DNA from: Escherichia coli
GTDB taxonomy: Bacteria; Pseudomonadota; Gammaproteobacteria; Enterobacterales; Enterobacteriaceae
Direction: 5' to 3' (one strand)
DNA: 64,000 nt
Assembly: GCF_036507355.1 (NCBI RefSeq)
Contig: NZ_AP027877.1
Under the pieces are notes generated by a model. It had not been told where the DNA came from, made no database searches, and saw only the letters and a program-made list of their open reading frames with translations. A program made the position numbers and the translations under genes. Of the stretch, positions 21,441 through 26,280 are shown piece by piece. Position 1 is the first letter of the stretch, and every line of letters begins with the position of its first letter.

Positions 21441-22286
21441 TTATTTTCCCGCCTCCGGGTGCGTATCAAACGCCGCCATCACCAGCGCTAACTCATCCAC
21501 GGTAAAGCCATGTTTCGCATCATCCACGCCCAGACCAAACTGTTCTTGCATCACGGCATATAACGACGCCACATCCGGTAGATTTCGCTGCTCCACCGCG
21601 TGCCCATTTTCATAATGGGTAAAATGAAAATTGGGCAGTGTCAGCTTGCCGCCGTCCGGTAAATGGCGGCACATCAGCAAATGATGGCGAAAATGCGACT
21701 GCGGCCAGTGCGCCGACCAGAAATTGCCCATCACATAATCGCTTTGTTGCTGCTCGCAGAGATCAAAACGGTACATCGACTGCCAGTGCTGATGATGATT
21801 AAACTGCAACACCCAATCATCACCCTCCTGCAACAACCGATACTCTCCGTGTGGCGTGGTCTGCACGAGATCGGGAACTAAACGAATCGGCGCGGTTAGC
21901 GTCTGCCCACCGAAACCGACATCAGCAATCCATTTTTCCTCTTCCAGTTCCACCAACAGCAAACGATGGGTGCGCGGCGGTAATGCTGGCGGATTTGATA
22001 ACACTACGCGCCCTAACAAGCTGCGAACGTTAAACCCCAGCTCGCGTAACACCCGCTCAAACACGCCATTCTGCTCAAAACAGTAACCGCCACGACGGGC
22101 TATCACCAGTTTCTCTTCCAGCGATTGATCATCAAGCTGTATTTCCCTCGGCAGCAAAACGTCAAGGTTTTCAAACGGAATGGTGCAATTGTGTTTCAGG
22201 TGCAATGCACGAAGCGTATCAATATTGACCGCAGCAGCTCCCGACCAGTTAATACGGGCAAAATAGTGATTCAGAATGGGCGTCAT
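21441..22286 (-). CDS. nhoA: Arylamine N-acetyltransferase / N-hydroxyarylamine O-acetyltransferase
   Basis: 281-aa ORF; NAT family with catalytic Cys context GGYCFEQN. Confidence 0.9.
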   Translation of the reverse strand: MTPILNHYFARINWSGAAAVNIDTLRALHLKHNCTIPFENLDVLLPREIQLDDQSLEEKLVIARRGGYCFEQNGVFERVLRELGFNVRSLLGRVVLSNPPALPPRTHRLLLVELEEEKWIADVGFGGQTLTAPIRLVPDLVQTTPHGEYRLLQEGDDWVLQFNHHQHWQSMYRFDLCEQQQSDYVMGNFWSAHWPQSHFRHHLLMCRHLPDGGKLTLPNFHFTHYENGHAVEQRNLPDVASLYAVMQEQFGLGVDDAKHGFTVDELALVMAAFDTHPEAGK

Positions 22287-22458
22287 CAGGCGTTTCCCTT
22301 AGTGGTTTTCTCAACTTATAACCTGGAATAGACGCCGCACCGGCTATTTTGTGCGATCGCGGACATGCATCACGTTCGCAAATCGCCAATCCCGTTAATT
22401 TCGTTACTTATTGCGTTACGGACTACGCTTAAAAAAACCTTCTTCGCGAGGCGATACC

Positions 22459-23028
22459 ATGAGCCGATTCATCCCCATAGAATTACACCATGCCAGCCGT
22501 CTGTTAAATCATGGCCCAACTGTCTTGATCACCAGTTTCGATGAGCAATCCCAGCGGCGTAACATTATGGCTGCAGCCTGGTCAATGCCGGTGGAGTTTG
22601 AACCTCCACGCGTGGCGATTGTGGTAGATAAATCGACATGGACCAGGGAGTTGATTGAACATAACGGTAAATTTGGCATCGTTATCCCGGGCGTTGCAGC
22701 AACTAACTGGACGTGGGCGGTGGGAAGTGTGTCGGGGCGTGATGAAGATAAATTTAATTGCTATGGCATTCCGGTTGTGAGAGGCCCGGTATTTGGTTTG
22801 CCTCTGGTCGAGGAAAAATGTCTGGCGTGGATGGAGTGTCGATTGCTACCTGCGACTTCTGCGCAAGAAGAATACGACACGCTGTTTGGCGAAGTAGTAT
22901 CAGCAGCGGCAGACGCACGGGTATTTGTCGAAGGCCGCTGGCAGTTTGATGATGATAAGCTCAATACATTGCATCATTTAGGTGCTGGCACGTTTGTTAC
23001 TAGCGGCAAGCGTGTTACGGCGGGTTAA
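22459..23028 (+). CDS. yddH: Flavin reductase-like domain protein
   Basis: 189-aa ORF from MSRFIPIELH; synteny. Confidence 0.8.
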   Translation: MSRFIPIELHHASRLLNHGPTVLITSFDEQSQRRNIMAAAWSMPVEFEPPRVAIVVDKSTWTRELIEHNGKFGIVIPGVAATNWTWAVGSVSGRDEDKFNCYGIPVVRGPVFGLPLVEEKCLAWMECRLLPATSAQEEYDTLFGEVVSAAADARVFVEGRWQFDDDKLNTLHHLGAGTFVTSGKRVTAG

Positions 23029-23031
23029 GCA

Positions 23032-23259
23032 TTACATGCTGTAACCAGGTTTCTTTATCAAAGCCTCCATTTGGGGCGCGATTTCGGCATCCCAGATAGC
23101 TTGCCATGATTCTGGTTGAATCTGCTGTAGAGAAATGCTTATCGAGCTATCTTTACTGTTCAGATGGCGAATAATAACGTCGGTAATATCTGCAGCAAGT
23201 GCTGCTTTTTGTTGTTCGTCCAGTTCACGCGGAAAACATTTAATGTCGATGTGCGGCAT
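23032..23259 (-). CDS. pptA: Tautomerase (4-oxalocrotonate tautomerase family)
   Basis: 75-aa ORF beginning MPHIDIKCF with the catalytic N-terminal Pro typical of this family. Confidence 0.85.
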
Positions 23260-23626
23260 GATTGTGCTCCTTTTGAAAGATGTCAGTAAAATTAACACAC
23301 ATTGTGAATGTCGTGTGTCCGGTAATGCGTTTTTACGACAATAATGCCTGCTTGAAATTGTAGATATTTGCACTACACCCTTTTAAATAAAGCACCAACA
23401 AATCTTCAAATTGCAGGACATATTCTTCTGCCAATATACCATTAAGAAAACATCAAGTTCCCGGCTTGCCAATTTATTAACGCCCATTATAGACGCTGAA
23501 ACAAGCCACGGACAAAGAAGATGCCAAAATTACCGGCAATGCAGAAAAACTCAACGAACTGTTAGGTTAAATGGATAATTTTGAATTTTGGTTCAATATA
23601 GTGACACTATAAAATTACTTTGTATC

Positions 23627-23649
23627 GGGCAGGTGCCCTGCCCTTTTTT
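23627..23649 (+). terminator. Orphan rho-independent terminator (perfect 7-bp GC stem + T6)
   Basis: GGGCAGG-tgc-CCTGCCC followed by TTTTTT; overlaps a second CCCTTTTT/AAAAAGGG inverted repeat; no annotated + strand gene ends here. Confidence 0.5.
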
Positions 23650-23712
23650 AGTTAAAAAGGGCTGAAAGAAGAAATACGCATCATTCATGGAAAACTCGCC
23701 GCGATATGGTAA

Positions 23713-24015
23713 TTCGCGGCATGGCAATTAACTTGCCAGTCAGAGGATATTGTTGTCCGTTATGGTAGCGAAGATTTTGCCATCAAACTTTTTAATGCAA
23801 CATTGCCGGAAGCAGAGACGGTAGCAGCCAGAGTGAAACAAGAACTTAAACTGGCAGCTATCCCGCATCAGGCATCTGCTGTTAGTGCGTTCGTTACGGT
23901 TAGTCACGGGATTACCTGGTCTGCTCCCGCCAAAACGGCTGAACAAATTATTTCAGATGCCGACGCCGCGTTATACCGGGCGAAAGCAAGTGGGCGAAAT
24001 CGATGGGCTTTATAA
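23713..24015 (+). pseudogene. C-terminal fragment of a GGDEF-domain (diguanylate cyclase-like) protein
   Basis: In-frame translation ...RYGSEDFAIKL...SAFVTVSHGITW...ADAALYRAKASGRNRWAL matches the C-terminal half of GGDEF domains; no N-terminal part and a stop immediately upstream. Confidence 0.5.
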
Positions 24016-24078
24016 CTATTAGGGGACTGGCTAGATTACGTATCTTCGCTCTTAACAAGGACTGACGGCAGGGCAAGA

Positions 24079-24560
24079 TTACGAAAGCCCGCTCCCCGCA
24101 AGGACTGACGCCAGATAGTTTCTGTCCATGGCTGCTTTTCGCATCTTATGTCTTAACCCTGCCTTGAATACCTTATCATTCGTCAAAATATTAATAGCAA
24201 TGTGCCGTATCCCTGGAAATAATTCTGCTGCATTTCCTCTTCTTATTTTGCAGTCGTCTTCATTCATTACCACGTCCAGACGCCAGTGCAGCTTATTCTC
24301 CACGTGCCAGTGGTTTCGGATTGCTGTGGCGAACTTCTCTGCGGTTAAATCAGCAGAACTGATATAATATCTGACCGTCATTTCTGGCTCTTTCTTTTGT
24401 TCTGCTATTATGGACCGAAAGGAGACTGCCACGCATAATTTCTTCAGCCCTTTCCATTCAAACGTGAAATCAATAAGTTCATCAGGAACATCGCAAACAA
24501 TATGAAGACGGATTTCTTCTCTGCCGTGACTAAAATGCGAATTATTTAGTACAAAAAAAG
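24079..24560 (-). pseudogene. 3' remnant of an H-repeat / ISAs1-family transposase gene
   Basis: ORF 24079-24432 encodes ...[43 protein letters not shown]..., the conserved C-terminus of H-repeat proteins such as YdcC; further matching residues continue upstream in a shifted frame; N-terminal two-thirds absent. Confidence 0.6.
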
Positions 24561-24636
24561 CGGCGCACCTTGTTCTTTCCCAGATTCCTAATATGGCAAC
24601 TTTAAGTTATCGCCGTCTATACTTATAGAAATTTCA

Positions 24637-25092
24637 TCAGGGGTGACATAAATAGAATTTTTTTTCATCCTCAATTGCCCATAACTGATTAATAAAAAAG
24701 TGTTTTTTATCATCTAATAACAAATCATCACATGTAGTAAAATTATTAATATCAAAAAAATCATCAGCACAATTAATTTTTAAATTTAAAAAATAAAGAA
24801 AAATATTATTGATTGATTTGAGTGTAAACCACTTGTCATTAACAAATTTATAGCCAGATGATTTTATAAAATAATAATTATCTCCTGGTATAAAGGCATA
24901 CATATCATTTAAGGTTATACTCAACAAAAAACTACGACCTGGTTTAATAGTATTCCAGCGTTCAGGATTCGTATTAATTTCAAAAGGACATGAACCACCT
25001 AAGTAGTCCAACGTGATATTCCCAGAGTTGATCCTGGATGGTTTTTTGCATATCGCATCATATTCATCTCCTTTTCCATCTTTTACTTTCAT
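24637..25092 (-). CDS. Hypothetical protein (151 aa), AT-rich, translationally coupled to the upstream small ORF
   Basis: Start ATG overlaps the stop of the upstream ORF (ATGA at 25089-25092); no recognisable motif. Confidence 0.4.
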   Translation of the reverse strand: MKVKDGKGDEYDAICKKPSRINSGNITLDYLGGSCPFEINTNPERWNTIKPGRSFLLSITLNDMYAFIPGDNYYFIKSSGYKFVNDKWFTLKSINNIFLYFLNLKINCADDFFDINNFTTCDDLLLDDKKHFFINQLWAIEDEKKFYLCHP

Positions 25093-25379
25093 AGGTAGAT
25101 AATATTTAGAAAAAAATACGTGGTAGAGCTATTGTTAGTAAAGGTTATGTTAGCAAAAATCCTGTTATTTTTTTTACTCATAGCTAATTGAGCATTGACA
25201 TCCGCTATATAATTTATATGATTACATTTTTTCTTACACTCATCATAATTTTCGATAGGATAAATTAATGGCCTTCCTTTGATATCTCTCTCAAGCCCAA
25301 ACCCGTATTTTTTTATTAAAACCATTTCATCCGCAGTCGATTGAAAGGAATAGAAAAATATAATATTTACGATTGTCAT
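25089..25379 (-). CDS. Hypothetical small protein (96 aa), AT-rich
   Basis: ORF only; hydrophobic N-terminus; coupled to the downstream ORF. Confidence 0.35.
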   Translation of the reverse strand: MTIVNIIFFYSFQSTADEMVLIKKYGFGLERDIKGRPLIYPIENYDECKKKCNHINYIADVNAQLAMSKKNNRIFANITFTNNSSTTYFFLNIIYL

Positions 25380-25431
25380 TATTATGATTTTTTTATAGCT
25401 TGCAGCATTAATATATTTCTCGACTTATTAG

Positions 25432-26280
25432 TTAATGGAGAAGTGTTTTTTCTAATTCCGCTATTTTTTTCTTAACTGAATTGCTTAATATTTCATCATT
25501 AATCGAGTCTATCTCACTTTCAATTAATCTTATTTCAAAATATCTTTCTATGTTATATGCATTCTCAAATATTTGATCTTTTTGTTTAGAGATCAGTTTA
25601 GTTGCAATACGGATATGTTCGTCATATGAAACTTCATCCTCTTTGCACGTTGAATATTTATCAGTAGTTGTATAATCCTGTGACCACATACCACCTTTTT
25701 TATTATCCCCATAATACCACTGAATATGAGACATTTCATGACATAAAGTAGCAACATGAGAATCCTTTCCCGTTACTGGATTTTTTTTGCCATCTCTATA
25801 CTCAAATTTTGCGCCTATGTTAATTATATAGGGCATATCCTTACTTGGGCTGACGAATGCTGCAAATTCATTACAACCTGTATAATTTATAAAACTGCTC
25901 ATTGTTAAATCATTAGCTATAATCATTAATCTTCTCACGCCATCCATCATAAGAAATCTAGCATTCATGCGCCTACCTGTATTATGTCCATATTTTCTTA
26001 TATTAACTTCCTTATTTCCTTTAACACCAAAGATCTTACTGAAATAATATTCCTCCTGTGCTCCCCATCTCAAAAGATCATCTGCTCTTTTTATCAAAAC
26101 CAACTTTTGTGCCTTACGAGCCTTATCAATCATTATTTTAAAATGATCAGTTATTTTTTGCTCTTTCACACATTCTTCTGGCTCTGGCTTTGGTTGTCCA
26201 GAAGTTTGATTATTATCGTCCATAGTGTCCTTCCATTGAGAGAAAATCATCATTCGCAAATAGCAACTAAAAAGCAGCAT
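25432..26280 (-). CDS. Hypothetical protein with HExxH motif (putative zincin-like metallopeptidase or toxin domain)
   Basis: Motif ATLCHEMSHIQWYYG; ~30% GC; true start may be the internal MDDNNQ (26223); function inferred from motif only. Confidence 0.45.
   Translation of the reverse strand: MLLFSCYLRMMIFSQWKDTMDDNNQTSGQPKPEPEECVKEQKITDHFKIMIDKARKAQKLVLIKRADDLLRWGAQEEYYFSKIFGVKGNKEVNIRKYGHNTGRRMNARFLMMDGVRRLMIIANDLTMSSFINYTGCNEFAAFVSPSKDMPYIINIGAKFEYRDGKKNPVTGKDSHVATLCHEMSHIQWYYGDNKKGGMWSQDYTTTDKYSTCKEDEVSYDEHIRIATKLISKQKDQIFENAYNIERYFEIRLIESEIDSINDEILSNSVKKKIAELEKTLLH

Follow-up and report, generated by a model that had tools for sequence, protein, structure and literature searches.

The hairpin between pptA and a degenerate GGDEF gene in the 64,000-nt stretch of Escherichia coli DNA analysed here (the window) is very probably the relic Rho-independent terminator of a deleted accessory alkyl/aryl-sulfatase gene of the SdsA1/YjcS type, which has the metallo-β-lactamase fold. 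In strains with the intact gene, the hairpin would end the sulfatase transcript 14 nt past the stop codon. A deletion, probably by illegitimate recombination at a 2-bp microhomology, took 1927 bp and left 39 codons and the terminator, and a second deletion, at an imperfect 9-bp repeat, gutted the adjoining GGDEF gene. The terminator would now be a passive relic, a competent sequence with no gene to terminate, and little or no transcription probably reaches it in the window. Directly observed were the homology and the endpoints of both deletions, along with where the hairpin sits behind the intact gene and how it is conserved.

The hairpin and the sulfatase remnant

The hairpin was composed of a perfect 7-bp stem, GGGCAGG/CCTGCCC, and a TGC loop (23627–23643, + strand), and six of the seven pairs were G-C. 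A TTTTTT run (23644–23649) abutted the stem directly on the same strand, and the resulting U6 tail was preceded by an A/U-rich stretch. The RNA of the + strand folded with −13.5 kcal/mol. When both strands of the 64-kb window were scanned with a strict terminator definition (seven perfect pairs, at least five of them G-C, a loop of 3–8 nt and a T6 run abutting the stem), the hairpin was the sole match. The chance expectation of this motif was 0.015 per window (mean of 200 first-order Markov randomisations), and for the stem pattern alone, dinucleotide shuffles gave an expectation of 0.03. The hairpin is thus a real feature that chance does not explain. The same stem folded on the − strand with −13.8 kcal/mol and was followed there by GAUACAAAGUAAUUUU, with no abutting U-run, so the terminator is one-way and belongs to the + strand. 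A repeated element of the REP type was considered and rejected, as the window and each genome with the hairpin had a single copy. This anatomy suggests that the hairpin acts as a transcription terminator in vivo. It shares with canonical E. coli intrinsic terminators the G+C-rich 7-bp stem, the short loop, the U6 tail, the placement 14 nt after a stop codon, and a stem that is kept where the loop varies. It differs from them in being stranded, since its gene is down to 39 codons and the putative promoter is damaged.

The first-pass annotation had described a perfect hairpin with a T6 run about 360 bp from pptA and on the opposite strand. Both points were borne out: 368 bp lie between the hairpin and the start codon of pptA, on the upstream side of that gene. 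It had further called the terminator an orphan at which no protein gene ended, and neither statement held: the last 39 codons of a sulfatase gene stop just before the stem, and this gene lies intact upstream of the hairpin in 441 genomes. The interval of 14 nt between the sulfatase stop codon and the stem, on the same strand, was identical in the window remnant, in the 441 genomes with the intact gene and in other Escherichia.

Translation in frame from 23493 gave TLKQATDKEDAKITGNAEKLNELLG, a stop codon, MDNFEFWFNIVTL and a second stop codon, and the sulfatase of strain W46 ends in TLKEATAKGDVKITGNEEKLNELLGYMDNFEFWFNIVTP before its own stop. The remnant was identical to residues 620–657 of the W46 sulfatase at 32 of 38 positions (84%, E = 1e-19) and matched positions 87–124 of the 125 in the Pfam profile Alkyl_sulf_C with 39.5 bits (curated cut-off 27). 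A premature TAA was located at 23568–23570, where intact alleles have TAT. Because only residues matching 620–658 are left and the reading frame contains an internal stop, no enzyme can be made. A complete sulfatase open reading frame was absent from the window; the start codon, the Lactamase_B domain and the dimerisation domain were gone with the 1927 bp. Judged by translation and protein match, the stretch 23493–23612 is a sulfatase remnant and not a gene.

The intact sulfatase contained the Pfam domains Lactamase_B, Alkyl_sulf_dimr and Alkyl_sulf_C, and matched the solved alkyl sulfatases 7TL5, 4NUR, 4PDX (YjcS) and 2CFU (SdsA1) over its full length. The ancestral gene thus had the same domain architecture as these type III alkyl/aryl-sulfatases, among them SdsA1 of P. 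aeruginosa and YjcS of E. coli. Unlike YjcS, the sulfatase next to pptA is a strain-variable accessory copy, and its place is not the yjcS locus of K-12.

The remnant allele (23493–23729) was only 86–90% identical to each of the 441 intact E. coli copies. The intact sulfatase copies were mostly at least 99% alike, and the pptA flank of the window was about 94–95% identical. On these identities, the exact ancestor of the remnant allele is unsampled among the intact E. coli alleles, and the deletion lineage is either old or derived from an unsampled divergent donor.

The ancestral locus and its two deletions

In W46 (L001), the + strand after pptA carries an alkyl/aryl-sulfatase gene (1977 bp) and then a GGDEF gene (1050 bp), separated by a 94-bp spacer. 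The ancestral order, pptA (−), sulfatase (+), hairpin and MASE5-GGDEF gene (+), was found in 441 of 5426 complete E. coli genomes (about 8%). When the window was aligned to W46 by BLAST, three blocks were obtained (Table 1), and the window consequently carries two deletions relative to W46. Deletion 1 extended from the last base of the −10 hexamer of a promoter-like site upstream of the sulfatase to codon 619, and its junction was contiguous in 161 complete genomes. Deletion 2 (731 bp) lay within the GGDEF gene. The window retains the terminator between sulfatase codons that contain a premature stop and a GGDEF stump whose frame is shifted.

Table 1. Features of the pptA–ISAs1 interval in the window and their alignment to W46 (L001)
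Feature	Window position	Strand	Evidence or remarks
pptA (tautomerase), conserved left-hand neighbour	23032..23259	−	ORF; annotated at the homologous place in relatives
pptA–sulfatase intergenic region, retained	23260–23492		
Remains of the promoter-like site upstream of the sulfatase: TTGCCA 23466–23471, 16-nt spacer, TATAGA 23488–23493	23466..23493	+	
Deletion 1 junction	23491..23494		1927 bp missing relative to W46 (L001 4074–6000); 2-bp AG microhomology
Sulfatase 3′ remnant: 39 codons and ancestral TAA 23610–23612	23493..23612	+	Translation, protein match, Pfam
Putative intrinsic terminator of the sulfatase gene	23627–23649	+	7-bp stem, 3-nt loop, T6; conserved position after the intact gene
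Start of the MASE5-GGDEF gene, 11 codons (MVIRGMAINLP) ahead of deletion 2	23706..23738	+	Aligns to L001 6217–6249
Deletion 2 junction	23730..23738		731 bp missing (L001 6250–6980); imperfect 9-bp repeat (..TTGCCA / ..TCGCCA); fusion out of frame
GGDEF C-terminal stump: 92 codons and stop	23737..24015	+	Pfam GGDEF
Truncated ISAs1-family (ydcC-like) element	24069..24531	−	DDE_Tnp_1; ydcC annotations in relatives
BLAST block 1: pptA and its upstream region	22900–23492		L001 3481–4073
BLAST block 2: last 122 bp of sulfatase, spacer, first 33 bp of GGDEF gene	23491–23738		L001 6001–6249
BLAST block 3: last 286 bp of GGDEF gene and downstream sequence	23730–24076		L001 6981–7326

The intact neighbour of the sulfatase was a MASE5-GGDEF protein by Pfam. 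The stump in the window matched positions 72–161 of the 161 in the GGDEF profile (E = 1.6e-18), and its active-site motif read GSEDF, where the intact sequence has GGEEF. A complete GGDEF domain with a GG(D/E)EF site was absent from the window, given the partial profile match, the GSEDF motif and the out-of-frame fusion to the start codon. The same piece was labelled a pseudogene by PGAP, the NCBI annotation, in strain OkiPb01695. DgcX has an eight-helix sensor domain of ~270 residues related to YcdT and YeaI, and adjoins lambdoid prophages at attB (Richter et al. 2014, PMC4287979). The neighbour gene of the window resembles DgcX in being a strain-variable diguanylate cyclase with a membrane sensor, but an identification with DgcX was rejected: its sensor domain is MASE5 and its locus lies beside pptA. 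In contrast to DgcX, only a stump is left of the window copy, with its frame shifted and its motif reading GSEDF. In E. coli AF10 (L007, 3715–5963), the locus was otherwise intact and the MASE5-GGDEF gene was split by an insertion of ISKpn26 (IS5-like), so that this cyclase was also inactivated independently by another route.

A second perfect 7-bp hairpin, GCCGCGA-(9 nt)-TCGCGGC, was located at 23698–23720 (+), and its loop holds the ATG of the GGDEF gene (23706). It occurred at the same place in L001, L007, L008 and L019 and was kept in most intact alleles; two alleles had a G-U pair, strain E1V33 had one mismatch, and the stem was broken in E. coli E69. An upstream open reading frame of 14 codons, from an ATG at 23687, overlapped the GGDEF start. 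In intact strains, this hairpin and the upstream reading frame could serve to control translation of the cyclase.

The window covered the narV-yddE-nhoA-yddH-pptA region of E. coli. The best identity of its core genes to any of the 5426 complete E. coli genomes was 98.8%, and the strain is thus without a close relative among them. The 817-bp stretch from pptA to ISAs1 was found whole only in OkiPb01695 (98.6%) among these genomes. The ISAs1 element was reduced to its last 463 bp. Its end at 24069 formed a fixed right-hand boundary, from which the further deletions of other strains ran leftwards. Past ISAs1, an AT-rich block (29–38% G+C) extended from 24532 to about 28500 and contained − strand open reading frames without a significant Pfam match; one of 282 residues (25432–26280) had a HEMSH motif and a weak match to Aspzincin_M35. 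These reading frames probably belong to the Rhs hotspot as orphan toxin/immunity cassettes. On the other side, yddH (+) and pptA (−) were convergent with 3 bp between their stop codons (23026–23034), and the sole terminator-like site after yddH, GCAGCAAGTGCTGC followed by TTTTTG (23192–23205), lay antisense within the coding sequence of pptA. A palindromic repeat of the REP type (tgccggataaggcgtttacgccgcatccggca) was located between yddE and nhoA at about 21398–21431, and probably explains the median of 11 matches per genome for a yddE–pptA query.

Promoter-like sites and the question of a small RNA

Promoter-like hexamers had been reported just upstream of the hairpin in the first-pass annotation, together with a possible unannotated small RNA ending at it. 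Both strings exist. TTGAAT (23581–23586) was within the codons N-F-E-F-W of the remnant, and TATAAAAT (23608–23615) spanned its last sense codon and the TAA stop. As a sigma-70 promoter the pair was rejected: TATAAA lies 21 bp from TTGAAT, where the accepted hexamer spacing is 16–18 bp, and both hexamers belong to coding or stop sequence of the sulfatase. A transcription start from this pair would fall on the hairpin itself. A promoter scan of the + strand from 23262 to 23627 gave no site with at least 9/12 consensus matches between pptA and the hairpin, and hence no promoter of a small RNA's own upstream of the terminator.

The promoter-like site with the best score ahead of the intact sulfatase gene was TTGCCA-16-TATAGT (L001 4047–4074, 10/12), ~65 nt before the start codon; matches of this quality occur about as often in shuffled sequence. 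As a consensus match, this site is the candidate promoter of the sulfatase. Deletion 1 starts right after TATAG, and the −10 hexamer of the window therefore reads TATAGA, as opposed to TATAGT in intact strains. The final T is one of the two most critical positions of the sigma-70 −10 hexamer. Its loss would be expected to silence the putative sulfatase promoter. On the − strand, a hybrid promoter-like site, TTGTCC-18-TATAAT (10/12, 23515–23486), straddled the deletion 1 junction and faced pptA. It was made by the deletion, with its −35 hexamer from the sulfatase remnant and its −10 hexamer from the old intergenic region, and is a consensus match as common as in shuffled sequence.

When positions 22000–25500 were scanned against Rfam 15 by E-value, nothing was found at 23400–23660. 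The sole sub-threshold match was Ysr206 inside pptA, with 16.5 bits versus 124. Folding of a putative 151-nt RNA that starts at 23500 and ends with the T-run revealed no structure apart from the terminator (z = −1.36). Among the 5426 complete E. coli genomes, no hairpin was found conserved apart from the sulfatase 3′ end. The small RNA thus found no support, considering the Rfam result, the hexamer spacing, the damaged promoter-like site and the loss of the hairpin in 160 of the 161 genomes that share the deletion 1 junction. A weak junk transcript might still arise at the hairpin. The first-pass annotation had alternatively taken the hairpin for a relic of the neighbourhood of the decayed GGDEF gene; its relic nature stands, and the gene to which it belongs is instead the sulfatase upstream of the GGDEF gene.

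CpxQ, SroC and DapZ are 3′-UTR-derived small RNAs of enterobacteria that share the terminator of an mRNA. An RNA made from the coding end and 3′ UTR of the sulfatase and ending at the terminator of its mRNA would share this anatomy. In contrast to these RNAs, the window showed no sign of a processing site or of a promoter inside the remnant; a conserved seed-like segment and an Rfam family were likewise missing, and the element was not retained without the parent gene.

Conservation, loss and alternative explanations

The hairpin segment was present in 442 of the 5426 complete E. coli genomes, once in each. Among the hairpin copies listed, all but that of OkiPb01695 end an annotated alkyl/aryl-sulfatase gene. 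One of the 442 sulfatase-terminator segments was on a record typed as plasmid and not chromosome. A cross-species scan for the C-terminal coding motif of the sulfatase, with one genome per species, returned 17 loci. The same stem followed the stop codon in E. whittamii, in Escherichia sp. E1V33, in two divergent E. coli and in a metagenome-assembled genome labelled Citrobacter. The loops of these relatives were TAT, TTT, TTC or TGC, the last being that of the window, and the stem of E. whittamii had one mismatch. In Atlantibacter, Aeromonas, Serratia and Ensifer, an unrelated hairpin was located at the same position after the sulfatase. Among seven Escherichia alleles, one of 14 stem columns was variable, compared with 29 of 39 in the flanks (Fisher p = 1.5e-5). 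No compensatory changes were found in the stem of the Escherichia alleles, which was invariant but for the E. whittamii mismatch. A kept stem with a free loop would be the pattern expected of a working terminator of an intact gene.

Conservation of the hairpin across strains, proposed in the first-pass annotation as a check on its function, was accordingly found in the 442 genomes and in other Escherichia, but not in the deletion lineage, where the window-type hairpin was lost in all but one of the 161 genomes. Two endpoints of this loss were distinguished. In L003 and L006, the sequence was cut at window position 23559 and joined straight to the ISAs1 (ISAs1/ISEc1) end at 24069, and in L004 and L005 it was cut at 23589 and joined to a SymE/Rhs segment. 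In K-12, ydcC (ISEc5) is 100 bp from pptA, and the match to the window extends only up to 23348. Some part of this region was retained in 687 genomes. The loss throughout the deletion lineage indicates that nothing retains the hairpin once the gene is gone. Within the remnant lineage, 16 of 194 comparable neighbouring sites had changed, against none of 20 in the hairpin and T-run. The intact hairpin of the remnant was considered as a sign of selection and rejected, since at this lineage's own substitution rate 20 sites stay unchanged with P = 0.18.

Other explanations of the hairpin were weighed against a relic sulfatase terminator. An attenuator is unlikely. The hairpin would then lie within a sulfatase–GGDEF operon of intact strains, the cyclase would be made by regulated read-through, and the window would keep a relic of the device. 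In W46, the T-run ends only 56 nt before the GGDEF start codon, the interval contains no promoter-like site of 9/12 or better, the spacer is moderately conserved, and the second hairpin encloses the GGDEF start codon, all of which suit this arrangement. However, no anti-terminator pairing was found as an alternative to the hairpin, which with its T6 run resembles a plain strong terminator, and the unrelated hairpins of other genera at this position point the same way; with both flanking genes dead in the window, there is also nothing left to regulate. About as doubtful is a relic mini-transcript, in which the damaged TTGCCA-16-TATAGA site fires weakly to give a non-coding RNA of ~150 nt (roughly 23500–23649), either neutral junk or a co-opted small RNA. 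The −35 hexamer and five of the six −10 bases do remain ~135 nt upstream of a strong terminator, and a U6 tail after an A/U-rich stretch is also found in Hfq-type small RNAs. Yet the missing base is the critical final T, from established knowledge of sigma-70, and the scan gave no promoter-like site on the + strand here. The RNA is unstructured beyond its terminator and has no Rfam match, its 3′ part including the terminator is gone in nearly all genomes with the same deletion, and lineage-specific substitutions in the segment have accumulated at a pseudogene-like rate. It is very unlikely that the deletion, by fusing a weakened promoter, the last 117 coding nucleotides and a strong terminator, created a stable RNA of ~150 nt with an acquired regulatory role; such an RNA would perhaps be the same 3′-end-derived RNA that is processed from the sulfatase mRNA in intact strains.

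A minus-strand insulator, in which the stem blocks transcription reading out of ISAs1 (−) before the promoter region of pptA, is highly improbable. The − strand fold is equally good, and the IS remnant is on that strand and upstream of the stem in that direction. Against it, GAUACAAAGUAAUUUU provides no U-run next to the stem, the hairpin is older than the present arrangement and belongs to a + strand gene, and 160 of the 161 related genomes do without it. Scarcely credible, finally, is a chance hairpin without history or function. A loose terminator scan did return four sites compared with 3.5 in shuffled sequence, but the strict motif is unique in the 64 kb, 441 genomes, as well as other Escherichia species, have an orthologous hairpin behind the intact gene, and the stem is selectively conserved, so that this reading was counted as already refuted.

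The relic sulfatase terminator is an already known kind of element, and the outcome is plainly negative: gene decay fully explains a strong terminator that had seemed an orphan and that is not a small-RNA candidate. The window represents a rare intermediate, found in one of 5426 complete genomes, in the erosion of the sulfatase and diguanylate-cyclase genes beside pptA, which runs from the intact locus through two internal deletions and then one next to the IS to the state of K-12, where the loss is complete. It provides an example of gene loss at the pptA–ydcC–Rhs hotspot, where terminators may outlive the genes that they served.
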